Positions 3 through 24,556 are shown, numbered from the stretch's first letter. The stretch is DNA of 64,000 nucleotides from a virus (IMGVR_UViG_3300042992_000089); one strand, 5' to 3'. Numbers and translations: made by a program. Notes: a model not told the origin generated them from the sequence alone.

Positions 3-1688
3 TCTGGTTCATCAGCTACATCTGGTTCATCAGGCACTGGAGGAACTAGTGGATCTAGTGGCACATCAGGTAGCTCTGGTCTTGCTGGTGATAGATATGC
101 TACCTTCTCAACTACACCTTTTACTTTAGGTAATGCAGGTACAATAACAGTAGGAACTGGCTTAGCATACACAGTGGGTCAATCTGTGCTCATAGCAAAT
201 AATCAATTTAATTATCAACATAGCGTAGTTATTTCATATATTTCTGGAACAGGAGCTTTACAATTTGCAGCACCTGATGTATTAGTAGGATCTGGAACAT
301 ATTCTATCTGGTCTGTTAACCTTGTAGGTGCAGCAGGTGGTGATGGTTCTAGTGGAACATCAGGCTCTTCTGGTACCTCTGCTACAAGTGGGTCTTCTGG
401 CTCAAGTGGTAGTTCAGGTACAAGTGCTACTAGTGGATCTAGTGGAACTAATGGAAGCTCAGGAACATCTGCATCTTCAGGTACTTCTGGCTCATCAGGT
501 ACTGATGGTAGTTCTGGAACTGCTGGTACTTCTGGTACCTCTGGCACAGCTGGTTCTAATGGAACATCAGGAACAAATGGTACTGATGGTAGCAATGGTA
601 CATCTGGTACCTCTGGAACAAATGGTTCATCTGGAACTGATGGTTCATCAGGTACTAATGGATCTTCTGGAACAAGTGGAACGTCTGCATCAAGTGGAAC
701 GAGTGGAACAAGTGGTACAAGTGGAACTAATGGAACATCTGGATCGTCTGGTAAAGATGGTAGTACAGGTGCAGCTATTGCTAACTGGTATGGAGAGTTC
801 TCTAGTACACAAACACAACCATTGCTTGGAGTGAATACTCCTACAATATGGACGTTTGACACTACAAGTTTATCTTATGGTATTTCTGTAGTGGCTAGCT
901 CAAGAGTAACAGTTTCACATCCTGGTCAATATGAATTCATCTTCTCAGCACAGGTTAGTAAAACAACATCTCCAATTGCTGAGGTACAGATATGGCCTAG
1001 AATCAATGGCTTTGATGTAGCTAATTCAAATTCATTTATAGAAATACAGCAAACAGAGGTGGAATACATTCCTACTATTGCTTATATATTTAATCTACAA
1101 GCTAATGATTATGTACAGTTTGTCTTTGCATCTGCTGATTCAACAGTTCAACTTGTTGCTAAACCTGCACAAGTTTCTCCTTATGCATCTCCAGCTGCTC
1201 CTTCAATAATATTAACTGCTAAGCAAGTGGGTGTTGCTGTTTCAGGTACATCTGGTACAAGTGGAACAACTGGCACATCTGGTACTTCTGCATCAAGTGG
1301 AACTTCTGGATCTTCTGGAACAAGTGCTAGCTCAGGTACATCAGGTACAGATGGTAGCTCAGGCACTGCAGGTACTAGTGGTAGCACAGGTACATCAGGT
1401 ACTGCAGGTACGTCAGGATCATCTGGAACTTCAGCTAGCTCTGGTAGTGATGGATCATCTGGCACTAGTGGCACTGATGGAAGTTCTGGTACGAGTGGAA
1501 CGAGTGGAACTAGTGGAACTGATGGGTCTTCTGGAACAGCAGGAACAACAGGTACAGCAGGAACAACAGGAACTAGTGGTACTGTAGGTACATCTGGAAC
1601 ATCAACAACAAGTCTTGGTACAAGTGGAGATTCAATCACTATACCTCCTTCAGAAGGAACTACAACTACAACAACCACTGCACCTTAA
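3..1688 (+). CDS. Collagen-like fiber protein, 5' partial. Gly-X-Y tracts (X,Y = S/T/D/A/N) flank a central C1q/BclA-like jelly-roll domain; poly-Thr C-terminal tail.
   Basis: The open frame is unbroken from window position 3; the GTG at 174 in the ORF track is internal. It reads [16 protein letters not shown]... with Gly at every third residue. The central segment IANWYGEF...PGQYEFIFSAQV...NDYVQFVF...QVG has a C1q/TNF-like pattern that also closes the 16891 ORF. The protein ends TTTTTTTAP. Confidence 0.75.
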   Translation, partial: SGSSATSGSSGTGGTSGSSGTSGSSGLAGDRYATFSTTPFTLGNAGTITVGTGLAYTVGQSVLIANNQFNYQHSVVISYISGTGALQFAAPDVLVGSGTYSIWSVNLVGAAGGDGSSGTSGSSGTSATSGSSGSSGSSGTSATSGSSGTNGSSGTSASSGTSGSSGTDGSSGTAGTSGTSGTAGSNGTSGTNGTDGSNGTSGTSGTNGSSGTDGSSGTNGSSGTSGTSASSGTSGTSGTSGTNGTSGSSGKDGSTGAAIANWYGEFSSTQTQPLLGVNTPTIWTFDTTSLSYGISVVASSRVTVSHPGQYEFIFSAQVSKTTSPIAEVQIWPRINGFDVANSNSFIEIQQTEVEYIPTIAYIFNLQANDYVQFVFASADSTVQLVAKPAQVSPYASPAAPSIILTAKQVGVAVSGTSGTSGTTGTSGTSASSGTSGSSGTSASSGTSGTDGSSGTAGTSGSTGTSGTAGTSGSSGTSASSGSDGSSGTSGTDGSSGTSGTSGTSGTDGSSGTAGTTGTAGTTGTSGTVGTSGTSTTSLGTSGDSITIPPSEGTTTTTTTAP

Positions 1689-1712: not shown

Positions 1713-4547
1713 ATGCCTTATAGTAACATTACAATAACCATTCAGACAGGTCTTACGTTTATTCCTGGACAATATGTCCAAGTGATACATGATGAGAACA
1801 ACTATATGTTTGGTCAAGTTGTATCATATAATTCAGGAACAGGACAATTCATATTTGAACCAGTTAGTTATTTAGGAGCTGGTACATTTACTAGTTGGAC
1901 TGTTGTAACTTCAGCTGCTCCTGGTGAGGATGGAACAAGTGGTACGTCTGGAACTGCTGGATCTAGTGGTTCAACAGGAACCTCAGGTTCTAGTGGAACT
2001 GATGGTAGTTCAGGAACAAGTGGAAGTGCAGGTACTAGTGGCACTGATGGCTCTAGTGGTACATCAGCATCTTCAGGAACAAGTGGATCTTCAGGAACTG
2101 ATGGTTCATCTGGAACATCTGCTACGTCTGGATCTACTGGTACAAGTGGATCGAGTGGATCAAGTGGTTCATCTGGTAGCTCAGGTACTTCTGCTTCTAG
2201 TGGATCTTCTGGCACATCTGGAACAGATGGATCTAGTGGTACATCAGGAACAGATGGCTCAAGTGGAACTGCAGGAACTACTGGTACATCAGGTACGAGT
2301 GGTAGTGATGGTTCTTCTGGTACAAGTGCAACAAGTGGCTCATCTGGTACGTCAGCTTCTAGTGGTTCCTCTGGAACTTCTGGTTCAAGTGGTAGTGCAG
2401 GTACTGCAGGTCTTTCTGGAGACTTATATAAAACAACATCAACTACATCATTAGCAATAGGAACAGGTACAAAGAATCTTACTGTTGGTACAGGTTTATC
2501 TTACACAGTGGGACAGGTTGTAGTTCTTGCTTATGATCTAAGCAATAGCATGGGTGGTGATATTATATCTTATAATTCTGGATCAGGTGCAATGTCTGTA
2601 AACGTAACTGCTACTACTGGTAGTGGTACTTATGCAGCATGGGATGTAAACTTAGGTGGTGCTGCTGGAGGTGATGGATCTTCAGGTACTAGTGGTGCAG
2701 ATGGTATTGATGGTAATCTTGCTATATGGAGATTCTCTACAAACACAGATACAAGCACAGACCCAGGTAGTGGATATTTTAGATTAAACTCTGCAACATG
2801 GGGAGCAAGCGTAACAGCAATTGCTATTGACAATCAATCATACTCTCCAAGCGTAAACTTTGGTACATACCTAGATACATTACAGAACAACTCTATTATA
2901 AAACTTGTATATGTTAGTGATAAGAATACATTCAAGATTTTAAGAATAGATGCTCTTCTTCCTAATCAAACAGGATTTGAAGAATTCACTGTAACACAAT
3001 TAGGATCAGGTGGTACAGATCCTAATGATAATGATCAATTCTATTTTGAATTTAATGGTATAAGTGGATCTTCTGGTACTTCAGGTACGAGTGGAACATC
3101 TGGCACTACAGGTACTAATGGTTCGTCTGGTACTGATGGTTCTTCAGGAACGTCAGGATCAAGTGGAACTTCAGCATCTAGTGGTACGTCAGCTTCCTCT
3201 GGTACATCAGGTACATCAGGCACTGATGGGTCTAGTGGAACATCTGCTTCTAGTGGATCAAGTGGTACTGATGGATCGTCTGGTACTTCTGGTACTGATG
3301 GCTCATCTGGTACAAGTGGATCGTCTGGCACTGATGGATCAAGTGGTACTAGTGGTACTTCTGCTTCTTCTGGAACTAGTGGTTCAAGTGGAACAGATGG
3401 CTCTAGTGGAACAAGTGGAACAACAGGAACAAGTGGAACATCAGGTTCTTCAGGTACTAATGGAAGTTCTGGTACATCAGCTTCAAGTGGTTCTTCTGGT
3501 ACAGATGGTAGTTCTGGAAAGAATGGATCATCTGGAACTAGTGCATCTAGTGGTACAAGTGGTACGAGTGGATCAAGTGGAAGTTCAGGAAGTAGTGGAA
3601 GCTCTGGAACTTCAGGATCTTCTGGTTCTTCTGGTTCTTCAGGCTCTTCTGGAAAGGCTGGTTCATCAGGTACATCTGGAGCCAATGGAGCTACAGGTCC
3701 TCAAGGTCCAACAGGTGGACCTGGCCCAACTGGACCACAAGGAGCAACTGGACCACAAGGTGCAACAGGTGGACCAGGCCCTACTGGTCCTCAAGGTGCA
3801 CAAGGACCACAAGGTGCAACAGGACCACAAGGACCTCAAGGTCCAGGTGGGCCTCCAGGACCAACAGGACCAACAGGACCACAAGGACCTACAGGTGTTG
3901 TTGGTGGATTGAGTCAAGGTGTACAAACATATGGTTCTGTTGTAACAACAACAGCTAATAATGGATGGGCTGGTTATCAAACAACAACAGCTGGTGTATA
4001 TCATCAATTGATGTCAGCTGGTGGTGATTATGGATTGTATTCTAATAGTTATAGCTGGGGACATTATTATAGTGCTGGTAACAATGGTTGGGGTATTCGT
4101 GGAAGCACCACTGTAAACTGGGCTGCTTGTACTACGAATGGTACAATGTATTATACATCAGAGTCTTATGCTACATATAATATGTTTGCTGTATCCTTTG
4201 TACCTACTTCTGATGTTAGACTTAAAGAAAACTTTGCTCCATTAGAAAACTCTCTTGATAAACTTAAAGGCTTACAAGGTGTATCTTATAACAGAATTGA
4301 AGATATTACTAAGAGAAGAGAGATTGGTTTTGTAGCACAAGAGGTTGAGAAAACATTGCCAGAGTTTGTACATTATCATGAAGATACAGATGTATATGGT
4401 ATTGCTTATGATAAGATGACAGCTTTACTTACAGAAGGTTTGAAAGAAGAAGATCAGAAAGTAGATGCTATAGAGGCAAGAGTCTTAACTTTAGAAGCCA
4501 AGATTGCAACATTAGAAACACGTTTAGGTAACTTAGAAAATATATAA
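1713..4547 (+). CDS. Tail fiber / collagen-like protein with a C-terminal intramolecular chaperone (peptidase S74-like) domain
   Basis: It has long GSS/GTS Gly-X-Y tracts and a true GPQ/GPT collagen tract ([25 protein letters not shown]...) at about 3690-3900. The C-terminal 112 aa, [29 protein letters not shown]...[15 protein letters not shown]...[10 protein letters not shown]...[18 protein letters not shown], match the self-cleaving endosialidase/tail-fiber chaperone signature (DxRLKxN ... GxIAQEV ... PE ... LLxEAIKEL ... coiled coil). A repeated 70-aa globular cassette sits at the N-terminus and again around residues 240-330. Confidence 0.8.
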
Positions 4548-5002: not shown

Positions 5003-5605
5003 ATGAAAAACAAAACATTAGTCTTTCCTCAAAAAGAAATAGATGTTCAAAACTATTATTGGTTTAAACATGGATTTGATGATAATGCATTGAATCAAAT
5101 TTATCAAGATGTTGCCACTCTTCCTTTTATGGATGCTGGGACAGGAGATGATAATATTCAGGATAAGAAGGTAAGATCATCAAAGATAAAATGGATTCCC
5201 CAAGAAGATAAGTGGGAGTGGGTATATGCAAGATTAATGGGAATGATTGTCGAAGCAAATAAATCTTTATGGAACTTTGATTTACATAGTGTATTAGATA
5301 ATATTCAATATACAGAATATCATGCTGAGGATGGTGGACATTATGATTGGCATCAAGATCTTGGACCAGGTTGGTTATCAAGAAGAAAGATAAGCATCAC
5401 TGTACAATTATCTGATCCTAGTGAATATGAAGGAGGTGAATTAGAATATTGGAAAGGTGGTCCACCTGAAAATGCAGATAAAGCACCTAAAGGAAAAGGA
5501 GTTGTATTTATATTTCCTTCATACATGATGCACAGAGTGACACCAGTTACAAAGGGAGTGAGAAGATCATTGGTATTGTGGATAGGAGGAATTCCTTTTA
5601 AATAG
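5003..5605 (+). CDS. 2OG-Fe(II) oxygenase, prolyl 4-hydroxylase-like (P4Hc-like)
   Basis: It carries the HxD...H...RxS triad in canonical spacing: HYDWHQD, GGELEYW, PSYMMHRVTPVTKG, RRSLVLWI. Its size (200 aa) and layout resemble the small viral/bacterial P4H-like enzymes. Confidence 0.7.
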   Translation: MKNKTLVFPQKEIDVQNYYWFKHGFDDNALNQIYQDVATLPFMDAGTGDDNIQDKKVRSSKIKWIPQEDKWEWVYARLMGMIVEANKSLWNFDLHSVLDNIQYTEYHAEDGGHYDWHQDLGPGWLSRRKISITVQLSDPSEYEGGELEYWKGGPPENADKAPKGKGVVFIFPSYMMHRVTPVTKGVRRSLVLWIGGIPFK

Positions 5606-6689
5606 GAAGTTTAGACATAACATCATTTACTGAAATACTCTTATGACATTCAAAATGTCTAGGAGTATTTTCATTTTCAGGACACCACATCCAGTCTCCT
5701 TTGTTAAACTTGAACATAGGATTGTTCCAACATCCATTACATACATCCTTATTAGTTATGCGTATACAGTTGTTTTGAAACTCATGGTCTTCTGTTGTGA
5801 AGTTAGATATCATAACTCCTTGCTTACCTAATCCCCAATTGAGCCAACTGATTCCACTAGATAATCCTATGTATGTATCTGCATACCACAGATAGTTCAT
5901 TACATTCTCAAGAGATGTATCTTCTAACTTCTCTGCTCCATAGTCATCTGCTTCCTGAGATAGTTCAAACACTCTATATCCTTTAATCTTTAGTGTTTGT
6001 ATTAGTTCTGGCCAGTAATACCAGTGCTTACACTGAGCTGTAGATCTAGTGGAGATACAAATATATTCATTAACTGCAGGTCTTTCTTTAGGAGTGAATG
6101 CAATCCTAGGCTGTAACTCTTCATGCTCTAAGCACAAGATATTACTAGCTGCCTGTTGTAATGGTATAGTGGCAGGATGTACAGGTTCTTTTGATTCATC
6201 CCAATACCAGCCAATCTCCATCATTGCAATTATATTAGGAACAGACTGTCCTCTTCCTACAAACTCTAATTCAGGATATACATCTTTGAATAGTTCATTC
6301 CTGAACGTGGATACAATAACATGACAATCATACACTTCTTTAAACTTTAAACAATAGGGCATCCAGGCAATGCTATCTCCTAATGATTTACTTTCAAAAG
6401 ATATAAACACTCTCTTTCCTTTCACCTCATCTAATATGTTGATTTGCTTAACTGTACGTCCTTGGTATTTGACAAAGATGGCTATGTCAGATAGATACTT
6501 TCTATTAAGTCTAGCCCATGCTCCTGGCTTTAGTTTTGTTTCATAGATAGTTATGTGTTGATCTGTAAACATACCATCCACCTTACCTTTTCTATCTACA
6601 AACTGTATATCATACTCTCTATCTTTTCCTTCGTCTCCTGTTAGTTCAAAGTATAAACCATTAACATGGTGTAAGTTATATGTTATCAT
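5598..6689 (-). CDS. Glycosyltransferase, TibC/BAHT-like (autotransporter O-heptosyltransferase-like, GT9-related)
   Basis: It has the SLGDSIAWMPY...FKEVYDCHV motif typical of the TibC/AAH heptosyltransferase family, and a C-terminal Cys-rich CNGCWNNP...CPENE...CHK segment. Confidence 0.55.
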   Translation of the reverse strand: MITYNLHHVNGLYFELTGDEGKDREYDIQFVDRKGKVDGMFTDQHITIYETKLKPGAWARLNRKYLSDIAIFVKYQGRTVKQINILDEVKGKRVFISFESKSLGDSIAWMPYCLKFKEVYDCHVIVSTFRNELFKDVYPELEFVGRGQSVPNIIAMMEIGWYWDESKEPVHPATIPLQQAASNILCLEHEELQPRIAFTPKERPAVNEYICISTRSTAQCKHWYYWPELIQTLKIKGYRVFELSQEADDYGAEKLEDTSLENVMNYLWYADTYIGLSSGISWLNWGLGKQGVMISNFTTEDHEFQNNCIRITNKDVCNGCWNNPMFKFNKGDWMWCPENENTPRHFECHKSISVNDVMSKLPI

Positions 6690-7264
6690 TTCTCTGTATT
6701 AAAAAAGAATGTTTGAAATAGTCTACCATCTTGTAGATCTTTGCCAAAGTAATCCAAAGATACATGGAATAAGTCACCTCTATATAAAATAAGTCTGTTA
6801 TATACATTACCTATTCTATCTACCATCTCCCACTTTGTATAATCCATACCTTCAACATGTGGTGCTGCAGTTTTTGTTTCTTCTTCTGTATGTTCAGTAT
6901 ATATCCAATTCTTAAGACCTGTTTCTTTGTGTCTAAAGATACCTGTGCCTGAAGACAAAGGAGCATCAGGAGTAAGATAGCACACACCTGCCCAATTTGT
7001 AGTGCCATCACTGTGAATCCATGATCTATCTTGTGCTGTTGTGTATTGGAAAGCACCTGAATTATCATCTCCCCACCAAACTACATCACCTGCAAAGGGT
7101 CTAATATTATCTTGTATTATTTGTTTAATACTATCATTTAGAAAAGACTTAGTTCTTCTACCAGGATAGTTACCAGACTCACCAAATTCTTGACTCATAG
7201 CAAACGCTCTCACCTCATCTGGGTTATTGTAAAAGTCTGATATGGATAACATTTCTACTCTCAT
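6686..7264 (-). CDS. Hypothetical protein, possibly a cupin/2OG-oxygenase-like fold
   Basis: WIHSDG (HxD) and a later LFHVS His give a weak resemblance. Its start overlaps the neighbour in an ATGA arrangement. Confidence 0.3.
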   Translation of the reverse strand: MRVEMLSISDFYNNPDEVRAFAMSQEFGESGNYPGRRTKSFLNDSIKQIIQDNIRPFAGDVVWWGDDNSGAFQYTTAQDRSWIHSDGTTNWAGVCYLTPDAPLSSGTGIFRHKETGLKNWIYTEHTEEETKTAAPHVEGMDYTKWEMVDRIGNVYNRLILYRGDLFHVSLDYFGKDLQDGRLFQTFFFNTEK

Positions 7265-8283
7265 AAGTTGTTGTATGCGTTTATATATAATTGTCTTGTT
7301 CTGTCTGATGTATATCCTTCATTAATCTTCAGTATGTTATAATAATACTTAGCCAAGATTTTAGCTACATTGTCCCAGCTATATTCTTCACGTCTATCTA
7401 ATATAGCCTGTCTACGTTCTTCATAGTTGTGTATTACATTTACAATACCATCTACCACAGACTCTGTTGTAATTTTATTAATCACATGCATACCAGGGAT
7501 AGGTTTACTACCTCTATAAGTTCCCACAATAGGAACTCCACATGCTGTAGCTTCCATCAATGTTAGATTAGGATGTCCTGCTTCTAGCATAGATGGATGT
7601 ACAAAGATTGTACTAGATCTGTATAACTCTCTAGTCTCATCATCTGTAGGGTTTGTTAACTTTAAAGTTAACTTTGGATAATCCAATAGCTCAGAATGTA
7701 TCTCAAAGAACTTGTTGTTATCAGGATGCCCAGCTATTGTAATAGGTAGGTTTAATAACTTAGCTGCTTCTATACCAAATCTAAATCCTTTTCTATCATA
7801 TCCAGAATCACCTGCTAATCCATTGTTAGCTAACATTAATAAAGAGTGTGGTCTTGGTGCATAGTCAGGAGTAAAGAATTCTGTATTAGCCCCATGTGGT
7901 AGATAGAATAATTTATCTGTAGCATCAAAGTAATCTATAAGATATTCAGCATGCGTAAAAGATATAATGCTATGCTTCATAGCCTCTAGGTTTTGCTTAA
8001 ACACCCAGCTATCTTTACCATACCATTCTGTGTGGTGATCATGTAGAGAGTATACATAAGGTATACCTTTATCTCTACAATATAAAGCTTGATTAGCTAA
8101 ATGAGCATGAACAATTGTGTTAGGCCATTTCTCTAAGTCATTCATATATTTAACATCTACAACATGTCCTTGTTTCTCAAGGGCAACCTTATATTCCCAT
8201 GTAAGCCTTTCAACAGCTCCCCATCCATTTGGTGGTATGGTGATTAGTCCTGTTGCTACATGTACTGATTTTATTGGTTCCAT
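7261..8283 (-). CDS. Glycosyltransferase family 4 (GT-B fold)
   Basis: The C-terminal MEATACGVPIVGT matches the GT4 E-x7-E/ACG motif, and the N-terminal domain is typical of GT4. Confidence 0.7.
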   Translation of the reverse strand: MEPIKSVHVATGLITIPPNGWGAVERLTWEYKVALEKQGHVVDVKYMNDLEKWPNTIVHAHLANQALYCRDKGIPYVYSLHDHHTEWYGKDSWVFKQNLEAMKHSIISFTHAEYLIDYFDATDKLFYLPHGANTEFFTPDYAPRPHSLLMLANNGLAGDSGYDRKGFRFGIEAAKLLNLPITIAGHPDNNKFFEIHSELLDYPKLTLKLTNPTDDETRELYRSSTIFVHPSMLEAGHPNLTLMEATACGVPIVGTYRGSKPIPGMHVINKITTESVVDGIVNVIHNYEERRQAILDRREEYSWDNVAKILAKYYYNILKINEGYTSDRTRQLYINAYNNL

Positions 8284-8945
8284 TTGGTTCTAAATTTAAT
8301 TTCATCAATTCTAAACTTCCTTTCTTTCTCTTCACTCATACCTCCCACATTTAATGTTTCCATATGACAGACAATAGAATGTCTTACAAGAGCATGTTTA
8401 ATACCAGCCTGCTTTAGTCTTTCTGCATAGTCGTTGTCTTGATAGTACATATCAAACAACTCATCAAATGGTAAGATCTTATCTAGTGCAGACTTCTTAA
8501 TCACTGTACACCAACCTTGTAATGCTTCTGTCACAGCATAAGATTCATGATACTTACTATCAGTTCCTACAAAATGATTAGGGAACCATCTAGCATATAA
8601 CAATGGGTCTTTAGGAGAGAATGCTTCTATGTCTTCTCTGTAGTCATGTACCTTCATCATCTCTGAGAACCACCATCTTTCATAAGCTACATCATCATTA
8701 GATATAACCACCCAATCACCTTGGCAATATGTAAATGCTATGTTTAAAAACTTGTTGTAGTTAAAAGAATTCTCAGGATGTATATAGTTATGAATACGTG
8801 CATACCTATTTGGATCTTGTGTACCTGAGTCTACTAATTGCACACGAAACCTAAAGTCAATCTCACTATCATGCAATGTATCTATTGTACGTTGTGTCAG
8901 AGCCACATTAGTGCTATCTGTTAATATGATTACATCTATTGTCAT
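8271..8945 (-). CDS. Glycosyltransferase, GT-A fold (GT2-like)
   Basis: VVISNDDVAY is a DxD-like motif in a roughly 220-aa GT-A sized protein. Confidence 0.5.
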   Translation of the reverse strand: MTIDVIILTDSTNVALTQRTIDTLHDSEIDFRFRVQLVDSGTQDPNRYARIHNYIHPENSFNYNKFLNIAFTYCQGDWVVISNDDVAYERWWFSEMMKVHDYREDIEAFSPKDPLLYARWFPNHFVGTDSKYHESYAVTEALQGWCTVIKKSALDKILPFDELFDMYYQDNDYAERLKQAGIKHALVRHSIVCHMETLNVGGMSEEKERKFRIDEIKFRTKWNQ

Positions 8946-11605
8946 TTCTTTCTGAATGATTTATGTGTATTGTCTATTAAAGAAAATCCATCTGCTTGGG
9001 TAGTAAGTCTTTTCTTAACCATTCCCATTTGAGGCCCTGCAAAGATACTATTAAAATACATATCAGCAGCATCCCATTTGTGTGTTCTTAAGTTGTTCTT
9101 TAAAAACTTAGCTGCCTCTTTTGGAAACATAATAGATTGTAAACCAATGATATGATTGGTTACATACATTTCATTATTGATATCTTTAACAATAGGTGAT
9201 TGTGGCCAGCCATGTTCTAGTGTATCAGCATCTCCAAAAGACATATAGTTTATGTTGTTTGGTACCAATAAGTGTGCACATTCCTCAACTTTTCGTACGA
9301 AAAAGTGTATGTCTGTCTCAATGATACAATCTCCTTCACACACCATTAAGAAGTCACAATCATGAAACTCTGTTAAGATGGCATTCTTAAATGCTTCGTA
9401 GCATCCATAATGTGCTGGGGTAAGTGCAGTGCCATACTGTTGAATTTGTTGCTCATTGAAGAGTTCCATTGAAACACAATCTGGTCTGAGACAGTTATGC
9501 TTGGGTGGTAATGACTTATAGGGCTCGTTAAACTGTATGACATATTCCCAGCCATGGTCTTTGACTCTTTCAAGGGATGCTCTACTTTGTTGTTCTCTTT
9601 CATCATTTAATGTGGTTTGTATATGAACTAATTTAATCTTAGGTCTTTCGTTCTTCCATTCAAACTTTCCTGTGTGTTGGTACTTATGTAAGTTATCTTT
9701 GGTCAGCTTAAACTCTTCCAACTTATATTGAACATCTCCATCATAAAAATCCATTTTAATATCTATAGGATCTCCTTTGAATTCAAACTGATAAACAAGT
9801 TCATGGTTCTTAGCTGGTATTATTCTTTTCCACATGTAATCTTCAATAGATACATAGATGTTTCTATAGTCTCTGTTATATGTAAAGAAGTAGAACACAT
9901 AATTGTTTGGTTTTCCAACAACAGGGATGATAGAATAATACTCACTATTTGATGCTACACCTAATCCACTGTGAACTAACAAGGTATCCTTATCATTAGT
10001 AACTAACTGTATATCATTTGGGTTGAAGCTAAAGATAACCTTTGACAAATAGTCTTCTAGATAGTTCTCACATCTTCTTCTCTTACACACTTCGTTCCAT
10101 TCTTCTGGTGTACGCACATCATCAAACTCTTTCAAGAAGAAGTCTGTGTCAAACATAATACCATTGGTCTGAATTCCCTTACCCTGTGGAGTGGGTAGGG
10201 TAGCAGCATATAACTTTTTATCTGTTCTGAATGCATCATTTACTGCAGGGATATCTCTAGGATCTAATACAACATCATATGTAGTATAGAAGAACCTCTT
10301 AAACCCAAGCTCTTTAGCAACCTTAGCTGCATTAAATATATTAGTTAAGACAGTCAATGACTGGTTACTATTCTTCAATCCATTGATGTTGATCTCAGCA
10401 AAGTAGTCTGGTCTGTCATTGTAAAACCTGGTGTAATAACTGTGATGAGTCAAAGGATTATGCACATCGTATATATAACAATCCACCATGTTTTGAATGT
10501 CTATATCTACAGGATAGTGAGACACTAGTATAATCTTTCTACCCAATGGTTTAAGACTATTGATAGTATCCTTAGTCCATTGAATCCTATCCTTAATGTT
10601 TGGATAGGTGCCTAAGATGATACACTCTTCTTCCATTACATCTAAGTTTAATTTTTTGATAATATTGGTAGCATCACTACCAAGATCTCCAGTTAAATAA
10701 ACCATGTTCTCTTCATTGTTATATTTGTTACAGTATACATCTAGATTATACATCACTTTGATCAAGTCATCATATTCCATGGCTTCTTTAATAGCAATAG
10801 GATTTAACTCCTTGTTACCTCTATCTCCCTTTGATGGAAAGAAGAATACATCACATGCTTTTAAGAAGTCACTTACATCATCACGCTCTCCCCAGACAAC
10901 ACAGTTGTTTGGTTTATTAGCCATCAGTGGCTTCCAATAATTCTCAAAGTTACCTGCTTGGTTACCTAGGAAGTGAAACTTCACCTTATAGTTCTTAAGT
11001 CTTTCTGCTAGTTGAAATGCATAAGCTTGATTCTTTCTAGGTGTAAATAGTCCTACAGTTACAAAGTGTTTGTATTCAGGATCTAAGCCATAGTCTTTTT
11101 GTCTTTCTACTTTATTTCTAACCTTCTTATCAATAGGATATTCAATTACTTCTGTAGGTACATCTAAGTCTATGTATTGGAATGAGTTGTAAGAGCTAAC
11201 AAATATAAACTTGTCAGGCATCCATCTCTTGTGCTTAGGATTGAATGAGCTGTCATGCGTAGTCTCTGATATCTTCCAAGTTCTATTATCTGAATAGATG
11301 AATGCAGAAAGCTTGTCGTCCATGAACATCTCAGGAAACTCTTCCATCACTATAACATCTGGATTGAACTGTTCAATAATTCCAGACAGTTCACCATACT
11401 TATCTTCTCCTAAAGAATGGAAGTTAACTCCTTCTGTAAGCATTTGAATGATCTTGTTTCGCTGTACAACAAATGACCATGCTAGAAATGAATACTCTAC
11501 CACCTTAATTTCAAAGTAATCTTTTAACAGTTCCACTTTGTTTACTGTTACCTGAGGAGCCCCTCCTGTTGATAGGTGAGGAGTGATTATTAATAGCTTT
11601 TTCAT
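8942..11605 (-). CDS. Large multidomain glycosyltransferase: N-terminal GT4 module plus additional C-terminal transferase-like domains
   Basis: The N-terminus MKKLLIITPHLSTGGAPQ plus FFFPSKGDRGNKELNPIAIKEAMEY matches GT4 N- and C-motifs. The C-terminal 300 aa (GCYEAF...FLMVCEGDCII) look like a second nucleotide-sugar transferase domain, possibly GT25-like, but this is unverified. Confidence 0.6.
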   Translation of the reverse strand: MKKLLIITPHLSTGGAPQVTVNKVELLKDYFEIKVVEYSFLAWSFVVQRNKIIQMLTEGVNFHSLGEDKYGELSGIIEQFNPDVIVMEEFPEMFMDDKLSAFIYSDNRTWKISETTHDSSFNPKHKRWMPDKFIFVSSYNSFQYIDLDVPTEVIEYPIDKKVRNKVERQKDYGLDPEYKHFVTVGLFTPRKNQAYAFQLAERLKNYKVKFHFLGNQAGNFENYWKPLMANKPNNCVVWGERDDVSDFLKACDVFFFPSKGDRGNKELNPIAIKEAMEYDDLIKVMYNLDVYCNKYNNEENMVYLTGDLGSDATNIIKKLNLDVMEEECIILGTYPNIKDRIQWTKDTINSLKPLGRKIILVSHYPVDIDIQNMVDCYIYDVHNPLTHHSYYTRFYNDRPDYFAEININGLKNSNQSLTVLTNIFNAAKVAKELGFKRFFYTTYDVVLDPRDIPAVNDAFRTDKKLYAATLPTPQGKGIQTNGIMFDTDFFLKEFDDVRTPEEWNEVCKRRRCENYLEDYLSKVIFSFNPNDIQLVTNDKDTLLVHSGLGVASNSEYYSIIPVVGKPNNYVFYFFTYNRDYRNIYVSIEDYMWKRIIPAKNHELVYQFEFKGDPIDIKMDFYDGDVQYKLEEFKLTKDNLHKYQHTGKFEWKNERPKIKLVHIQTTLNDEREQQSRASLERVKDHGWEYVIQFNEPYKSLPPKHNCLRPDCVSMELFNEQQIQQYGTALTPAHYGCYEAFKNAILTEFHDCDFLMVCEGDCIIETDIHFFVRKVEECAHLLVPNNINYMSFGDADTLEHGWPQSPIVKDINNEMYVTNHIIGLQSIMFPKEAAKFLKNNLRTHKWDAADMYFNSIFAGPQMGMVKKRLTTQADGFSLIDNTHKSFRKK

Positions 11606-12301
11606 TTATGTAAATCTCTTTTTGTATGGATTATCAATTGTCTGATCTTCTACTGTAATATTTAAAAAGTTAAAACCTTGTAATGGACCACTAAGATACC
11701 CTATCTTGCCTGAAAAAAAAGTATTAAATGCAAGGCTTATTCTAGTTTTATCATCACTTGTTGTTGGAACACTATGTTCTGTAGTAGATGGGAATAGAAC
11801 AATATCTCCTTTATTTACAGGGAAATAAGCTTCAACACAAGTATACATGTTTTGTTCTTTTGCCTGTATTTGTAAATTATTAGGCAATGCTCTTCCAAAC
11901 ATTATCTTATCTGTATTCTTATCTGCATTGAAATATAAACATCCACTAATTATACTGTTTGGATGATGGTGCTGATGATGTGATTGTTCTTTCTTTGTGT
12001 AATTAAACCAAGACTGAGTTATAGATAATTTAAGTCCTTCTGGATTTATAGGATTATACACGTTTATCAAGTAATCATTAAGAATGGACTCAATGAATAG
12101 TTTTACATTACTAAGTTTAGGATTGTTTAAAACATACAAATTGTGTGTTGTAGAGTTTGATGAATTTCTAAATACATCACTTTCATACTCATATGCACAT
12201 TCTATTTCTTCATTAGTAAAGTCTCTATTGATGTTATTTAATAAAACAGGGATAGGGAAGATTGGTACTATTACTCCTCCTTGGTTTTGTTGTTCTGACA
12301 T
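11606..12301 (-). CDS. 2OG-Fe(II) oxygenase (TIGR02466-like family common in marine phages)
   Basis: The pattern HHQHHHPNSIISGCLYF ... GDIVLFPS ... H ... RISLAFN matches the conserved H..HPxS..SG.YY / FPS..xH / RISISFN signature of that family. Confidence 0.6.
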   Translation of the reverse strand: MSEQQNQGGVIVPIFPIPVLLNNINRDFTNEEIECAYEYESDVFRNSSNSTTHNLYVLNNPKLSNVKLFIESILNDYLINVYNPINPEGLKLSITQSWFNYTKKEQSHHQHHHPNSIISGCLYFNADKNTDKIMFGRALPNNLQIQAKEQNMYTCVEAYFPVNKGDIVLFPSTTEHSVPTTSDDKTRISLAFNTFFSGKIGYLSGPLQGFNFLNITVEDQTIDNPYKKRFT

Positions 12302-12302
12302 A

Positions 12303-13229
12303 TTATAAATTATTATTGATTGCGTGAATTACTTGTTCTACAGATGGATGACATTCAAAAGTTTCTTTCTTCTCTAAGCATCCTATTAATGGTTGTACAT
12401 AATCTATTGTTGGCCAATACTCAAGAGCATATTTCATATTAGAATTACAATGTAATCCACAACCTCCTCTTACATATATGTGCTTGCCTTCTTGTCTATG
12501 TGGTGTACGAAACTCTGGATTGATAGGAGATCCTAACTCAACAATGTCAGTTTTGGTTGTGCCTGCTAGATGTAGAATACCTGAGTCCATGGTGATAACA
12601 ACCTTAGCATTGTTAATGAGATGCCAAGTTTGAGCGATGGATGTCTTATTCATAAGGTTTATAACGTTATCGTCCATCTTATGTACAGGTTTGTTTACAT
12701 TAAAGAATCCTGTCTCAGAACTATCCTTACCAACTGCCACCACTTTGTAGCCCCATTTATTTAATTCATCAACTAGTTTAAGCCAGTTCTCTTGTGACCA
12801 AGTTCTATTGGGCCAGCTATTAACAGGATGTATCACAGCATATCTACCCTCTACAGAAACATTAGGTTCTTCTGTAGGCTGATAGAAACATTCTAATTCA
12901 TCTTTTCCAAGCATAAATCCTAGATGTATAGCATGGAACTGCCTAATATCCATCATGTTGTGCTTCATCTCTATACCACGCTCATCTTTCTTACCCACTA
13001 GATAGAATGAATTATGTATAATGTAATTACTTTGTATGTACGTCATGTCTATAGAGCTAGCTTTGTAGCTCTTTTCTACATAAGGGTTCATCTTAAACAA
13101 CTCAGGCATCTGAGAGATGACTATAATCTTTCTTTGATACGCATCATGAAGCTTTTTAATAGTGGGGGTGGCACAGATAAGATCACCCAATCCATTACAT
13201 TCTTCTAGATTTAAACAAACTGGTTTCAT
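12303..13229 (-). CDS. Glycosyltransferase family 9 (ADP-heptose:acceptor heptosyltransferase-like)
   Basis: GLGDLICATPTIKKL, WPNRTWSQENWLKLVDEL..GYKVVAVG and VITMDSGILHLAG are the classical RfaC/RfaF-type GT9 motifs. The track ORF begins at a TTG at 13391 with a junk N-terminus. I place the start at the ATG at 13227-13229 (MKPVCLNLEEC...). Confidence 0.75.
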   Translation of the reverse strand: MKPVCLNLEECNGLGDLICATPTIKKLHDAYQRKIIVISQMPELFKMNPYVEKSYKASSIDMTYIQSNYIIHNSFYLVGKKDERGIEMKHNMMDIRQFHAIHLGFMLGKDELECFYQPTEEPNVSVEGRYAVIHPVNSWPNRTWSQENWLKLVDELNKWGYKVVAVGKDSSETGFFNVNKPVHKMDDNVINLMNKTSIAQTWHLINNAKVVITMDSGILHLAGTTKTDIVELGSPINPEFRTPHRQEGKHIYVRGGCGLHCNSNMKYALEYWPTIDYVQPLIGCLEKKETFECHPSVEQVIHAINNNL

Positions 13230-13246
13230 CTGTTGGTTATTTAAAA

Positions 13247-13263
13247 CAAAGTTACTATATTTG
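13247..13263. promoter_or_regulatory. Divergent candidate promoter pair (TAnnTTTG boxes on both strands)
   Basis: TAACTTTG on the minus strand at 13254..13247 lies 17 nt upstream of the GT9 ATG. TATATTTG on the plus strand at 13256..13263 lies 24 nt upstream of the ATG at 13288. This is a strand-switch point. Confidence 0.4.
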
Positions 13264-13287
13264 TTGGAAATAAAAAACATTTTTACT

Positions 13288-13656
13288 ATGAAAATTGAAG
13301 TTTCTGTGGGGGAAGTTGTAGACAAATGGACTATACTTTCTATCAAAGCTCTGAACATTACAGACAAAGACAAACTAGTTAATGTTTTCAAAGAGAAAAC
13401 TTATCTAAATGATGCTGTACATCCTGAGATATTACATGATCCTTTGACAGACATGTTGCTTGAAGTTAATAAAGCTCTTTGGAAAGTGGAAGATCTTATA
13501 AGAGACTTTGAAAGAGCTAATAGTTTTGGAGAAGAGTTTATTGATTTAGCTAGATCTGTCTACAAGTTGAATGATAAAAGAGCACATATTAAAAAAGAAA
13601 TTAATATTAAGTATGGGTCTGACTTTGTAGAGGAGAAATCCTACCAGCCCTACTAA
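13288..13656 (+). CDS. Hypothetical protein
   Basis: This is an ATG-initiated ORF. The track version starts at a GTG at 13162 that overlaps the divergent promoter and is probably an over-extension. Confidence 0.5.
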   Translation: MKIEVSVGEVVDKWTILSIKALNITDKDKLVNVFKEKTYLNDAVHPEILHDPLTDMLLEVNKALWKVEDLIRDFERANSFGEEFIDLARSVYKLNDKRAHIKKEINIKYGSDFVEEKSYQPY

Positions 13657-14928: not shown

Positions 14929-15534
14929 ATGAACTTAGATAAATTAAAAGGACACATTCCTGATGGAGTGATTGCTCAGATTCCTGCTGTGCAGGAGAAG
15001 TTTGAGATCAATACACCTTTACGTTTAGCTCATTTCCTAGCACAAACAGGACATGAGTCAGGTGGATTCAAAGCTGTTACAGAAAACTTAAACTATGGTG
15101 CTGCTGGTTTACAGAGCATATTTAAGAAATACTTTACTGCTGAGAGTGCTAAGGAGTTTGAACGCAAACCTGAAAAGATTGCTAACATTGTCTATGCTAA
15201 TCGTATGGGTAATGGACCTCAAGCAAGTGGAGAAGGATTTAAGTTTAGAGGACGTGGTTACATCCAGTTAACAGGAAAGGATAACTACACTGCTTTTGAT
15301 AAAGTGGTAGAGGATGACATCTTAGCTAACCCAGAACTTGTAGCTACAAAGTACCCACTTTTATCTGCTGCTTGGTTCTTCCATAAGAATGGATTACATA
15401 AGATTGCTGATGAGGGAGCTACAGATGCTGTGGTAACCAAGGTGACTAAGCGTGTTAATGGTGGTACAATTGGTCTTGCTGATCGTATCAAACATTTTAA
15501 TGAATACAACAACCTTTTAAATGGTAGTATATAA
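14929..15534 (+). CDS. Endolysin, glycoside hydrolase family 19 (chitinase-like lysozyme)
   Basis: AHFLAQTGHESGGF and FRGRGYIQLTGKDNY are hallmark GH19 endolysin motifs. There is no signal peptide. Confidence 0.8.
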   Translation: MNLDKLKGHIPDGVIAQIPAVQEKFEINTPLRLAHFLAQTGHESGGFKAVTENLNYGAAGLQSIFKKYFTAESAKEFERKPEKIANIVYANRMGNGPQASGEGFKFRGRGYIQLTGKDNYTAFDKVVEDDILANPELVATKYPLLSAAWFFHKNGLHKIADEGATDAVVTKVTKRVNGGTIGLADRIKHFNEYNNLLNGSI

Positions 15535-15680: not shown

Positions 15681-15982
15681 TGGCAGCAAAAAAAGAAACA
15701 AACATTTCAGCAAACCCTTTACCTATATCGTTTAAGGAGTTTGCTAAAAACCCAATAGTGGGCACCCTTTTCTTGGTGCTCATTGCTATTTCATACCTGT
15801 ACATAGACGTTCGTACAACATTCAAAGAGCAGGCAACTTCTCAGAATGTACGTATTGATAAGGTGGAAACTAGATTGGATAGAGTGCAGGAAGCACTTAG
15901 AGTGAGTGATTCAGCCAAAGCTGTAACTAGTACTCAGTTACAGACATTACAACAATTAGGAGCAATTAAAAAGCTTAACTAA
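15680..15982 (+). CDS. i-spanin-like protein (N-terminal TM plus coiled coil)
   Basis: The TM segment is IVGTLFLVLIAISYLYI, followed by a helical region. It lies just after the endolysin. Confidence 0.4.
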   Translation: MAAKKETNISANPLPISFKEFAKNPIVGTLFLVLIAISYLYIDVRTTFKEQATSQNVRIDKVETRLDRVQEALRVSDSAKAVTSTQLQTLQQLGAIKKLN

Positions 15983-16323
15983 TGAAATACTTATTAATCA
16001 TATTAATACCATTCATCTATGGGTGCCAAAATACAACTGCTCAAAAAATTGATAGCTCTGTTGAAGAAGACAGGAAGTTTGAACAACTTCTTAACGAAGT
16101 TGAAACAAATACTAAAATAAGCCTACAGGTTCAAGCCAAGGCTAGTGAGACACAAAAGAAGATTGTAAAAGAAACAGTTCAAAATATAACCAACCTCAAA
16201 GAAGAGGTTACCACTCTCAAAACAGAATTAAATGAAGCTAAAGCAGCTCTTGATAGTGTTAGCATTGACACTGGTATCAGTTTCATCTTATTGCCAATAC
16301 CCAAAGACAAGAAGAATAGGTAA
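15982..16323 (+). CDS. Lipoprotein-like coiled-coil protein (o-spanin candidate)
   Basis: MKYLLIILIPFIYGCQ is a signal peptide ending in a Cys (a lipobox-like IYGC). Its 3' end overlaps the next ORF in another frame. Confidence 0.4.
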   Translation: MKYLLIILIPFIYGCQNTTAQKIDSSVEEDRKFEQLLNEVETNTKISLQVQAKASETQKKIVKETVQNITNLKEEVTTLKTELNEAKAALDSVSIDTGISFILLPIPKDKKNR

Positions 16324-16648
16324 AGATTCTGTAGTCATTATGACTGTAGAACAGGGAGATCAAATCAATACTTTGTATAAAAACTACAGAGCTCAGATAG
16401 ATCTCTTAAAGGTTGATACTCAATTAAATAGAGTAAAGATTGACTCCTTGCAAAGAAAATATGATAGTCTTGGAAGACTAATGTATGAAGCTATGCAATA
16501 CAAATGGAAGTATGAAGCAAACAGGGAGATATTCTTGAGTCAAGAGAAAGATCAACGTGGTAGAGATAGGTTACATGAAATATCTAAAGGACTATTAATA
16601 TTAATTGTTCTTATACAATTTGGTACAATTTCATCATTACATAAATAA
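16232..16648 (+). CDS. Protein with an N-terminal lipoprotein-like signal and a C-terminal TM segment (unimolecular-spanin-like topology)
   Basis: The N-terminus is MKLKQLLIVLALTLVSVSSYCQ, the middle is coiled coil, and the C-terminal TM is GLLILIVLIQFGTI. It overlaps the preceding ORF out of frame. Confidence 0.4.
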   Translation: MKLKQLLIVLALTLVSVSSYCQYPKTRRIGKDSVVIMTVEQGDQINTLYKNYRAQIDLLKVDTQLNRVKIDSLQRKYDSLGRLMYEAMQYKWKYEANREIFLSQEKDQRGRDRLHEISKGLLILIVLIQFGTISSLHK

Positions 16649-16890: not shown

Positions 16891-17859
16891 ATGGCTATAC
16901 CAAGCAGACAGATAGGATGGGGAACAGAAGAAAACCTTTTATGGCAAATTTCTAAGCAATTAGAAGCTATAAATGGTGTTGCATATAACGCAGGTGGTGG
17001 TGGTGGCACTGGTACCTCTGGTACAAGTGGTGCTGCTGGTTTATCAGGAACATCAGGAACTAGTGGTGTTGTAGGTACGTCTGGAACTTCAGGTCTTTCT
17101 GGTACATCTGGTATCAGTGGTACCAATGGTATCAGTGGTACTAATGGAGTTAGTGGAACAAGTGGTACTTCAGGAATTGATGGAACTTCTGGTATAGATG
17201 GTACTAGTGGAATAAATGGAACAGCTGGAACTTCAGGTGATAATGGTTCATCAGGAACAAGTGGCGAAACTGGTACTTCTGGTATAGATGGTACTTCAGG
17301 AACATCAGGTGAATCAGGTACTTCAGGAGTAAGTGGTACAGCTGGAACAGCTGGTATTGCAGGAACTGCAGGAACTAGTGGAGTTAATGGGGTTGTTGGT
17401 GGTTATTTAGGATCTTTCTATGATACTACAAGTCAAACAGGTCTTGCAGGAGCTGTTCTTACAATGGGTCTTACTAATTCAGATTCTTGGAATAATGGTG
17501 TTTCACTTGTTTCTGGTAATCAAATAACAATAGCTAATCCTGGTGTATATAATATACAATTTAGTGCACAGATGGTAAAAAATGCTGGTAACACTGCAAC
17601 GCATGCACACATTTGGCTATCACAAAATGGTACAAATGTACCTACTAGTGCTTCTCAATTAGGATTTCCTTCTAACTCTGTGTATGTTGTAGCAGCTTGG
17701 AATTTCTTTTTCAAGACAACAGTGGCTAATGAATATGTACAGCTTAAATGGGAAATAAATAGTAATGTAAACGATGCAATAGTTATCCAATCAGCTGCAG
17801 CTACAGGAAATGTTCCTGCTATCCCTGGTCTAATTGTAACAGTAAATCAAGTAGGATAA
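16891..17859 (+). CDS. Collagen-like protein with a C-terminal C1q/BclA-like jelly-roll domain
   Basis: The N-terminal module is [25 protein letters not shown], followed by [13 protein letters not shown]... Gly-X-Y repeats. The C-terminal domain, [12 protein letters not shown]...[13 protein letters not shown]...NEYVQLKW...QVG, is homologous to the central domain of the first fiber ORF and has a C1q-like pattern. Confidence 0.8.
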
Positions 17860-17871
17860 AATATATTAATA

Positions 17872-18009
17872 ATGGCAATACCTTCACAACAAATAGGCTG
17901 GAGTCAAAAATCTAAATTGCTTTGGCAAATATCTAAGCAATTGGAATACCTTACAGGTATATTATATAAAGGTGGGACGACTACTACAACCACTACAGCT
18001 ACTCCTTAA
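17872..18009 (+). CDS. Small paralog of the N-terminal module of the 16891 protein, with a poly-Thr tail
   Basis: [45 protein letters not shown] (45 aa) begins at an ATG at 17872 and is not in the ORF track. Confidence 0.45.
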   Translation: MAIPSQQIGWSQKSKLLWQISKQLEYLTGILYKGGTTTTTTTATP

Positions 18010-18035: not shown

Positions 18036-19052
18036 ATGAAGGATCTTAAATTTATCTGTGCACAACCAGATGATGTCTACTACACATGGCAAGTACATCT
18101 ATGGTTGGAAAGCTTGAAGAAGCTTGGACACTCAGACAAGGCAATTGTTTTAGTGTATACACCTAGTTTTAGAGAATACAATGGCAAATGGGAGAAGATC
18201 ATGGAACTGTATCCTGAAGCAAAGTTTGCTTTCTACAAGGATTCAGGAGACGTAAGTCAGTATTTAGGAGTTTATATTCCTATTCTACGTCCTTACTGCT
18301 TAATGAGATATTTCCAGGATAATCCTGATATGGTTACCAAAGCAGTGTTTTACTGTGATTGTGACGTAATCTTTACAGATAAATTTGATGTTGACAAGTT
18401 TAAAGATGATGATATAAACTATCTATCTGATACAAACAGTTACATCAATGCTTCATATTTTGATAGTAAATTAAAAGATGTCTTATTTGATAAGGTGGAA
18501 GAGTACCAAACTAGAGATGTCTTAGCTGAGCTTACAAGCTTAGTGGGTATAACAAGAGAGATAGCTGAAGCTAACAATGATCACTCAGGAGGAGCTCAGT
18601 ATTTCTTAAAGAACATAGACTCTAACTTCTGGAAGAAGGTGATGAATGACTGTATATTAATACGTGTCTACCTTCAGAATATAAACAAAGAGTTCTTTAA
18701 AGATGAGAACACAGGGTTCCAAAGCTGGTGTGCAGATATGTGGGCTGTGTTATGGAACATTTGGCTTAGAGAACAAGAAGCAAAGAACATTCCTGAGATG
18801 GAATTCTGTTGGTCTTCAGATCCTATAGAGAAGCTTGATAGAACAACAATATTACATAACGCAGGTATTACAGGACAGAACACAATGGGATACCCTGCTT
18901 TCTATAAAGGAGCATATCACACTGGTAAAGATCCTTTTCTAGATACACACATACTAAAAGTGCTTAGTGATGAGACTACTAAAAAACATGCTAATCATTA
19001 CTACACTCAACAACTAATAGAAATAAAAAACAAATATAATATAAATTATTAA
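18036..19052 (+). CDS. Hypothetical protein (possible nucleotide-sugar transferase fold, weak)
   Basis: It is 338 aa with FYCDCDVIF, a DxD-like motif. I see no firm family match. Confidence 0.45.
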   Translation: MKDLKFICAQPDDVYYTWQVHLWLESLKKLGHSDKAIVLVYTPSFREYNGKWEKIMELYPEAKFAFYKDSGDVSQYLGVYIPILRPYCLMRYFQDNPDMVTKAVFYCDCDVIFTDKFDVDKFKDDDINYLSDTNSYINASYFDSKLKDVLFDKVEEYQTRDVLAELTSLVGITREIAEANNDHSGGAQYFLKNIDSNFWKKVMNDCILIRVYLQNINKEFFKDENTGFQSWCADMWAVLWNIWLREQEAKNIPEMEFCWSSDPIEKLDRTTILHNAGITGQNTMGYPAFYKGAYHTGKDPFLDTHILKVLSDETTKKHANHYYTQQLIEIKNKYNINY

Positions 19053-19054: not shown

Positions 19055-19294
19055 ATGGCCCAGAATACTAATCGCCCTCTCAAAGCCTATGTACGCTTTG
19101 ATGGTACTGGAAGAATCGTTCCAAGTAGCCTAATTCTAAGAAGAAAGAAACCAAAAGTGGGTAAGTGGGTAGAGATCCCAGCTTATGAATGCTGCAATTA
19201 CGTTCCTACCACTACCACTAGTACAAGTAGTACTACAACAACTACTACTACAGCTACTCCTACAACAACAACAACTACAACTGAACCTCGTTAA
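19055..19294 (+). CDS. Small protein with a conserved core and a poly-Thr/Ser tail (paralog A)
   Basis: It reads LKAYVRFDGTGRIVPSSLILRRKKPKVGKWVEIPAYECCN followed by TTTTSTSSTTTTTTTATPTTTTTTTEPR. Confidence 0.55.
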   Translation: MAQNTNRPLKAYVRFDGTGRIVPSSLILRRKKPKVGKWVEIPAYECCNYVPTTTTSTSSTTTTTTTATPTTTTTTTEPR

Positions 19295-19306: not shown

Positions 19307-19552
19307 ATGGCAAATAGCAATAATAGATTAAAAGCATATGTACGTTACGATGGTACAGGACGTGTCATAGCAGGTAGTTTGATCTTACAAAGATTCAAAC
19401 CAAAGGTTGGTAACTGGCAAGAGATAGATGCAAATGAGTGTTGTAATCCTCCTACTACAACTACAACATCTACTAGTAGCACAAGTACAACTACTACTAC
19501 TACTAGCACTTCTACTAGCACAACTACCACAACAACAACTAGTCCTGGATAA
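19307..19552 (+). CDS. Small protein with a conserved core and a poly-Thr/Ser tail (paralog B)
   Basis: It reads LKAYVRYDGTGRVIAGSLILQRFKPKVGNWQEIDANECCN followed by a 40-aa T/S tail ending SPG. It is a tandem duplicate of the previous gene. Confidence 0.55.
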   Translation: MANSNNRLKAYVRYDGTGRVIAGSLILQRFKPKVGNWQEIDANECCNPPTTTTTSTSSTSTTTTTTSTSTSTTTTTTTSPG

Positions 19553-24087: not shown

Positions 24088-24556
24088 TGTTTCCTATGTG
24101 TTTTACAGGCACTCCTGCATATTTTTGATAAGATTCGAGTTTACTTTTTTTAATAACTACACTATTCATGCCAATCATAATTCCTTCTGGTAAGGTTGTT
24201 TTTTGATGAATAGCTGCTCCCATACCAAGGTTCACTTTATTTCCTACAGTACAAAATCCAGCTAATTTAGAACCAGCACTCATAGTTACACTAGACCCAA
24301 GAATACAATCATGAGCTACATAAGCATGTTTCATAAGATAACAATTATTACCAATTACAGTTTGTCTTTCTGCTCCTGAATCAATAGTGACCATTCCAGT
24401 AAGTATAGTACCACTTTTAATTAAAACACCTTTATCTTCATTCTCTTTACCTTTCCATTCAGGTGGCATTCCTATAACACAATAAGGACCTATGTATACA
24501 TCGTCCTCTATTGTAACGTTATTGCCAATAACAGCTGTACTATGTATTGTTTTCAT
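24062..24556 (-). CDS. Hexapeptide-repeat (left-handed beta-helix) acyl/acetyltransferase
   Basis: It has tandem [LIV]-G-x-x-x-x hexapeptide repeats (VIGNNVTIEDDVYIGPYCVIG ... TVGNKVNLGMGAAI). Confidence 0.7.
   Translation of the reverse strand: MKTIHSTAVIGNNVTIEDDVYIGPYCVIGMPPEWKGKENEDKGVLIKSGTILTGMVTIDSGAERQTVIGNNCYLMKHAYVAHDCILGSSVTMSAGSKLAGFCTVGNKVNLGMGAAIHQKTTLPEGIMIGMNSVVIKKSKLESYQKYAGVPVKHIGNNDAAKNNN

Follow-up and report, generated by a model that had tools for sequence, protein, structure and literature searches.

Two collagen-like proteins encoded by an uncultured phage each carry a globular domain, and the locus raises the question of whether these domains are copies of one head, what fold they adopt, and what such a head would do on a phage fibre. 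The window (the whole stretch of 64,000 nucleotides analysed here, approximately 35% GC) belongs to an uncultured crAss-related phage of about 110 kb. It encodes a GH19 endolysin (14929-15534), a large terminase (TerL; 56360-58402), and a P22-like portal (58402-60990), and no tRNA genes were found within it. TerL shares 40% identity with its counterpart in Leptolyngbya phage Lbo-JY46, 32% with those of Cellulophaga phages phi17:2 and phi4:1, and about 28% with those of crAss-like phages. A megablast search of the first 20 kb against GenBank phages returned only a 200-bp collagen-repeat match, indicating that there is no close cultured relative.

The first fibre gene, ORF1, is truncated by the window edge. 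A listed start at 174 (ORF 174-1688) was rejected because the frame is open back to base 3, where the window begins. The complete gene lies at positions 7916-9976 of a 111,968-bp contig (L014; NCBI GCA_043527995.1, JBFDFY010002903.1) that matches the window at 100% identity over 14,547 bases, and encodes 686 aa, starting with a domain of about 54 aa ahead of a first collagen segment of 34 Gly-X-Y triplets (aa 55-156). The second gene, ORF 16891 (16891-17859), encodes 322 aa, comprising a 34-aa N-terminus, 46 triplets, and a C-terminal head. It follows the lysis genes and sits outside any obvious tail module. The features of both proteins and their immediate neighbours are as follows.

3..1688, + strand: ORF1, first fibre gene, 5' end outside the window, which covers aa 126-686 of 686
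96..326, + strand: small non-collagen domain of ORF1, about 77 aa (aa 157-233, from the translation), between collagen segments 1 and 2
327..773, + strand: collagen segment 2 of ORF1, 50 triplets in register (aa 234-383), with Ala for Gly in 4
774..1235, + strand: head copy 1, internal in ORF1 (aa 383-536 of the full protein), BclA/C1q/TNF-like jelly roll
1236..1604, + strand: collagen segment 3 of ORF1, 41 triplets (aa 537-659)
1605..1688, + strand: C-terminal tail of ORF1, ending ...PPSEGTTTTTTTAP and a stop codon, with a TTTTTTTAP terminus
1713..4547, + strand: ORF2, 944-aa collagen-like fibre protein without a head (Pfam Collagen 5.7e-52, Peptidase_S74 3.8e-16)
16891..16992, + strand: N-terminal 34-aa module of ORF 16891, conserved in 33 of 120 close relatives
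16993..17397, + strand: collagen-like stalk of ORF 16891, 46 perfect Gly-X-Y triplets
17398..17859 (including the stop codon), + strand: head copy 2, C-terminal in ORF 16891 (aa 170-322), BclA/C1q/TNF-like jelly roll
17872..18009, + strand: 45-aa ORF, a copy of the ORF 16891 N-terminal module with a poly-Thr end, lacking stalk and head

Two copies of one head domain

The ORF1 head (774-1235) translates as AIANWYGEF...PGQYEFIFSAQV...NDYVQFVF...KQVGV and the ORF 16891 head (17398-17856) as GGYLGSFYD...NEYVQLKW...NQVG, followed by the stop codon; both measure about 150 to 153 aa. With the Gly-X-Y repeats removed, the two heads align end to end over 151 residues with 28% identity, 46% positives, and 2 gaps (E=6e-15). 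From 11 diverse homologues, including the ORF1 head and leaving out that of ORF 16891, an HMM was built that recovered the latter in a six-frame scan of the window at E=1.5e-33 (ORF1, 6.8e-59). The sequence-only reading had described the domains as paralogs at these positions, and the translations, the collagen-free alignment, and the HMM recovery all uphold it; the last two also rule out chance similarity or a repeat-composition artefact as the source of the resemblance. The two heads are, with near certainty, paralogous copies of one domain with a TNF-like jelly-roll fold. A third copy was not detected by the HMM in the six-frame scan of the window and the 10 kb upstream.

Several columns are conserved across the family, namely, G-x-Y in strand C, a Trp in strand D, a subsequent N-G, (N/G)-(D/E)-Y-V in strand G, and P-x-x-P ahead of the last strand. 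The pattern proposed from the sequence, GxY.F.....NG...GD.V.L, is a fair match to these columns, although its last motif is properly N-D/E-Y-V. The same reading placed the heads after Gly-X-Y repeats, and repeats do lie directly upstream of both, but the ORF1 head has Gly-X-Y on both sides.

Fold and nearest known relatives

No curated Pfam head family reached its cut-off for either head, Collagen being the only family above cut-off, and the same held for every member of the head family that was scanned. BclA_C (PF18573; cut-off 38 bits) matched the ORF 16891 head at 16.1 bits (E=0.01) and gave no match to the ORF1 head. Family relatives scored 25.8 to 33.1 bits (E=1e-5 to 5.6e-8), all below 38, which marks a significant remote similarity as judged by profile, yet one that leaves them outside the curated family; 4 of 11 family members matched, the best at E 1.5e-4. 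Neither window head matched C1q (PF00386; cut-off 23.7 bits), for which the best relatives reached 15.3 bits (E=0.024) and 1 of the 11 members E=0.0073, and the relatives' matches to C1q and TNF were stray and weak. Searches of the PDB by sequence, with the single domain and with two profiles, returned only noise, such as neuroplastin and designed 'Pizza' propellers, the latter through repeated 6-bit matches; F-BclA (9h38) appeared only at E=0.58. By these searches, sequence alone does not connect the heads to solved structures.

Predicted structure does make this connection. AlphaFold2, run on a 137-sequence alignment, gave two all-beta monomer models (pLDDT 94.8 and 94.5, pTM 0.88) with the features of the TNF/C1q superfamily (SSF49842), a ten-strand, two-sheet jelly-roll beta-sandwich of about 130 to 150 residues. 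Among solved structures, the heads at the C-termini of BclA and F-BclA, two collagen-like proteins of Bacillus (PF18573; PDB 1WCK, 3TWI, 9H38; 13-20% identity), come closest, a ranking that Foldseek left unchanged. The models and the Foldseek comparison, a structural check set beforehand, thus support the original proposal of a jelly roll, and for this fold assignment the predicted structure is decisive whereas sequence profiles alone are weak.

The resemblance to BclA extends to the layout for one protein only. ORF 16891 has the short N-terminal anchor, collagen, and C-terminal head typical of BclA_C proteins, and the BclA/C1q-like arrangement first proposed for both proteins holds for it; in ORF1, by contrast, the head is internal and is followed by 41 triplets and a tail. 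The setting also differs, as BclA_C proteins belong to the Firmicutes exosporium or endospore appendages and the window is a phage genome. BclA stands on the Firmicute spore on a stalk of GPT triplets, whereas the window proteins, predicted to belong to a phage virion, have GTS and GSS triplets and no proline. More distant are the gC1q domains of complement C1q, C1QL1, Caprin-2, cerebellin, adiponectin, and collagen VIII NC1 (PF00386), which are 8-17% identical to the heads and, unlike the ORF1 head, exclusively C-terminal.

Structural matches also include phage proteins, such as the distal 'cell wall binding domain' of the cyanophage tail fibres A4 gp24 (9K09) and A-1(L) gp33 (8KE9). The TM4 gp23 receptor-binding domain (9N6A), the receptor-binding protein head of lactococcal phage 1358, PRD1 P5, and the Sf6 needle knob are further comparable cases. 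All of these phage proteins are borne on alpha-helical or beta-structured stalks, share 12-16% identity with the window heads, and belong to other sequence families. Collagen stalks are found instead in the side-tail-fibre proteins EPclA-D of Escherichia coli prophages, which, as is proposed for the window fibres, combine a collagen triple helix with a globular C-terminal trimerisation/binding domain (PMC3368898); however, their capping domain PfC (PF06820) is of another family, and their collagen segments are shorter and combined with coiled coils. In metagenomic islands, proteins with C1q-like domains have been put forward as putative phage receptor-binding proteins (PMC7468147), and these proteins of environmental phages, together with those of a marine study cited there, appear to be the same kind of object. 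The two accounts rely on database domain hits and describe neither collagen stalks nor internal or tandem heads. Such heads are already known on phage fibres, and the window pair are further members of a large uncurated family.

The close structural matches of the head are all trimers. From this fold class, together with the triple-helix-type repeats abutting the head, three head chains would very probably form a trimer around a three-fold axis, as in all solved members of that class.

Family spread and the role of the head

An exhaustive profile search of 1.84 billion cluster representatives identified 7,614 proteins (E<=1e-3), of which 2,446 reached E<=1e-30, so that the family comprises about 7,600 clusters at 50% identity and has no curated model. 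Reaching it required a profile of distant members, a word-based search with the ORF1 head having given 3 matches. Among the best 143 family representatives with a full-length head, the head is C-terminal in 80 and internal in 63. Runs of at least 6 Gly-X-Y triplets lie upstream in 41 of these representatives, downstream in 19, and on both sides, as in ORF1, in 15, while 96 have no such run on either side; 16 have two or three heads per protein, some without a linker between them. The internal head of ORF1 is thus a recurrent layout and not an oddity of this genome, given that 15 of the 143 are flanked on both sides and 63 are internal.

The head of ORF 16891 is 70-89% identical across 120 clusters, in which it is joined to at least five unrelated N-termini and to stalks of 1 to 22 triplets, some of them GPPGPQ; the 46-triplet stalk of the window protein is the longest among those relatives. 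Judged from sequence, such joining of one head to varying anchors and stalk lengths is the usual signature expected of a binding module exchanged among virion adaptors. F-BclA shows the same pattern, its number of triplets varying while its C1q-like head, which is thought to be adhesive, is conserved (PMC12357932), and the ORF 16891 relatives mirror it. An identical ORF 16891 protein sequence is present in 82 indexed blocks of the assembly collection, and the contigs that carry it reach about 112 kb. In GenBank phages, the head domain occurs in 12 records, two of them already annotated as 'complement C1q-like protein 3 roll fold' and 'cerebellin-1 domain'.

Taken as a whole, the locus is best explained by a trimeric jelly-roll adhesin head carried on collagen-like stalks of variable length, a reading to which we assign a probability of about 0.75. 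ORF 16891 would then be a short virion fibre: the 34-aa module would presumably attach it to the virion, and the stalk, about 39 nm long, would hold a head of about 4 nm at its distal end. In ORF1 the same head would form an internal node, with a stalk of about 43 nm on one side and one of about 35 nm on the other. ORF1 adjoins the tail-fibre-like ORF2, which matches PHROG tail fibre families and has a C-terminal Peptidase_S74 intramolecular chaperone in place of a head, and this proximity was counted in favour of a fibre. The head would most likely be an adhesin for a host-surface structure; like the heads of BclA and of C1q type, it may in addition bring the three chains into register.

Adhesion or receptor binding, argued by analogy with the A4 and A-1(L) fibres and from the exchange of N-termini and the location of homologues within structural modules, is only somewhat favoured as the function of the head itself. 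Per-column entropy over 120 close relatives revealed no hypervariable receptor-contact patch, with modest variation in loops at both ends. This modest and unclustered variation, if anything, argues against a receptor tip caught in an arms race, as does A-1(L) gp33, in which the CBD alone did not bind cells and the stem was needed (PMC10966104).

A rather unlikely alternative is that ORF 16891 encodes a decoration fibre of the capsid or neck, such as a whisker or head fibre, which would adhere loosely to surfaces or mucus-like matrices and would not be a tail receptor-binding protein. Its gene stands apart from the ORF1-ORF2 cluster, after the endolysin and small lysis-type genes, and in Acinetobacter phage phiAC-1 the head ends a protein encoded directly after the capsid protein gene. 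Conservation of the head across many metagenomes on stalks of variable length, as in the spore-surface F-BclA, would also suit a decoration. However, in P22-like genomes the head ends a protein encoded in the tail-needle position, after a gp10-like tail gene, and the phage proteins among the solved matches are tips of tail fibres; a capsid-binding motif was not identified. In the other GenBank phage records the head ends long fibre-like proteins.

The head could instead serve mainly as a folding device, a stable nucleus for trimerisation and registration of weak Gly-X-Y repeats, with host binding located elsewhere. The C-terminal domain of BclA gives the BclA trimer extreme stability (PMC8968730), and other phage collagen-like proteins need a C-terminal trimerisation module, such as PfC in EPclA (PMC3368898). 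The S74 chaperone that replaces the head in ORF2 would fit one trimerising device per fibre, and both the proline-free stalks and the conservation of the head without a hypervariable patch agree with such a role. What makes it unlikely as the main function is that the head persists in proteins that offer nothing to nucleate, as in the 96 of 143 representatives without a collagen run of at least six triplets beside it, and close ORF 16891 relatives keep the head with as few as 1 to 3 triplets. Nucleating a stalk, a plausible role in itself, and binding a host are not mutually exclusive.

Several small genes surround ORF 16891. The 45-aa ORF that follows it could be a cap or competitor for the fibre attachment site or a remnant of duplication, and a 52-aa equivalent lies at the same place in a related contig (L011:8652-8810). 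Further downstream, a 338-aa protein (18036-19052, +) matches phrog_4417 and no Pfam family, and contains a D-x-D-like motif (FYCDCDVIF) recognised by eye; in a related contig it likewise lies immediately after the homologue of ORF 16891, and it may be a glycosyltransferase partner. Two overlapping small ORFs (15982-16648, +) follow the endolysin, the first with a lipoprotein-like signal (MKYLLIILIPFIYGC...), and by eye they resemble a spanin pair that would complete a lysis cassette just upstream of ORF 16891. A promoter and terminator scan around ORF 16891 gave no convincing signal with a consensus that may not suit the host.

Collagen-like stalks, possible modification, and the internal head

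Both proteins exceed the Pfam Collagen cut-off (PF01391; 27.2 bits), ORF1 at E=3e-33 and ORF 16891 at E=1.2e-17. The three ORF1 segments (34, 50, and 41 triplets) contain an occasional Ala for Gly that leaves the register intact, and the ORF 16891 stalk is uninterrupted. None of the repeat segments contains proline; Ser and Thr make up 38 to 59% (53% in ORF1 segment 2, 59% in segment 3, and 38% in the ORF 16891 stalk), and charged residues are few. If triple-helical, segment 2 would span about 43 nm, segment 3 about 35 nm, and the ORF 16891 stalk about 39 nm.

At the DNA level, the repeat units have drifted apart (63-84% matches), yet their periods are multiples of 9 and there are hardly any indels. 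Preservation of the Gly/Ala register in the face of such divergence points to structural constraint and not to recent slippage, and on this ground the triple-helix reading is retained, so we infer that the proline-free, Ser/Thr-rich repeats form triple-helical stalks. Collagen helices usually owe their stability to imino acids, charge pairs, or glycosylation. Without proline and with few charged residues, a stable triple helix is not assured in the absence of modification. Hydroxylation or glycosylation of collagen-like stalks occurs with BclA and mimivirus collagen.

Candidates for such enzymes are encoded between and after the fibre genes.

5003-5605: 2OG-Fe(II) oxygenase (PF13640)
7261-8283: glycosyltransferase
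8271-8945: glycosyltransferase
8942-11605: glycosyltransferase (887 aa)
11606-12301: 2OG-Fe(II) oxygenase (PF13759)
12303-13391: glycosyltransferase (GT9-like)
23452-25295: further modification group, with two GT2 genes and a hexapeptide transferase

These modification-type genes densely adjoin the fibre genes (5003-13391 and 23452-25295), and their products may hydroxylate or glycosylate the Ser/Thr-rich stalks or, alternatively, alter the host surface. Poly-Thr tracts of the form (ACN)6 are also overrepresented, with 12 observed and 0 expected. Coding tracts lie at the ORF1 C-terminus (1659-1678), in the 45-aa ORF (17977-17996), in two small ORFs (19232-19281 and 19487-19539), and in the portal gene (60570-60586), and they may be targets of O-glycosylation. 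The two small ORFs (19055-19294 and 19307-19552) are paralogous, sharing an N-terminus (..LKAYVR(F/Y)DGTGR..ECCN..) and ending in Thr/Ser tails of about 30 residues.

It is very unlikely that the Gly-X-Y regions are instead flexible, heavily O-glycosylated Ser/Thr/Gly linkers bearing the heads like beads on a mucin-like string, as their composition, the poly-Thr tails of ORF1 and several nearby small ORFs, and the presence of at least seven glycosyltransferase-type genes and two oxygenases might suggest, because Gly (occasionally Ala) occupies every third position over 34 to 50 triplets despite the diverged DNA, canonical GPPGPQ triplets occupy the corresponding part of the stalk in relatives, the regions score strongly against Pfam Collagen, and in BclA glycosylation and a triple helix coexist.

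With triple-helical stalks, the internal head of ORF1 poses a problem of geometry. The two chain termini of a TNF/C1q-type head would be expected to share one (base) face. With the termini at one face and linkers of 3 to 5 residues (segment 3 begins 3 residues past the last strand of the head), a collagen-head-collagen chain could hardly be a straight coaxial rod. ORF1 might then be a glycosylated fibre that is either folded back as a hairpin, with the head at its spatial tip and arms of about 43 and 35 nm, or bent at an elbow, a proposal that we regard as doubtful. If it were true, the Ser/Thr stalks, poly-Thr tails, and adjacent oxygenase and glycosyltransferase genes would together represent a glycosylated, folded-back phage fibre architecture, of which a literature search found no description. 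What the sequences themselves show is that the head lies inside the chain in ORF1 and that some relatives have two or three heads.

Two fibre proteins of an abundant uncultured phage, hypothetical until now, can thus be given a firm structural label, which can be extended to about 7,600 clusters, for which a dedicated family profile would aid phage annotation and host-range prediction. Only two features would go beyond known biology, namely, the layouts with a head between collagen segments or with heads in tandem, and a possible connection to the neighbouring modification enzymes.

Other modules recur around ORF1. The small domain at 96-326 (GSGTY..W.VNL.GAAGGDG) is found again in ORF2 at aa 1-70 (1713-1922) and aa ~238-318 (2424-2666), directly preceding collagen segments once in ORF1 and twice in ORF2, and it also begins a metagenomic relative (P0001). 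It has no family match and may be an N-terminal nucleation or junction domain. Upstream of ORF1 on the identical contig (L014:1-7746) are two very large genes encoding 1,744 aa and 4,146 aa. The 1,744-aa protein has no PHROG match, and the head domain is absent from both genes, as covered by the last 2.5 kb of the 4,146-aa coding sequence. Finally, the ORFs in other frames over the repeats at 215-862 (-), 328-834 (+), 1181-1678 (-), and 1231-1587 (+) were rejected as by-products of (GGN-NNN-NNN)n, and those at 1868-2215 (-) and 3041-3912 (both strands) are likewise collagen-repeat by-products and not genes. In the public gene call for a near-identical contig (L013), such reverse-strand ORFs were called in place of ORF1.
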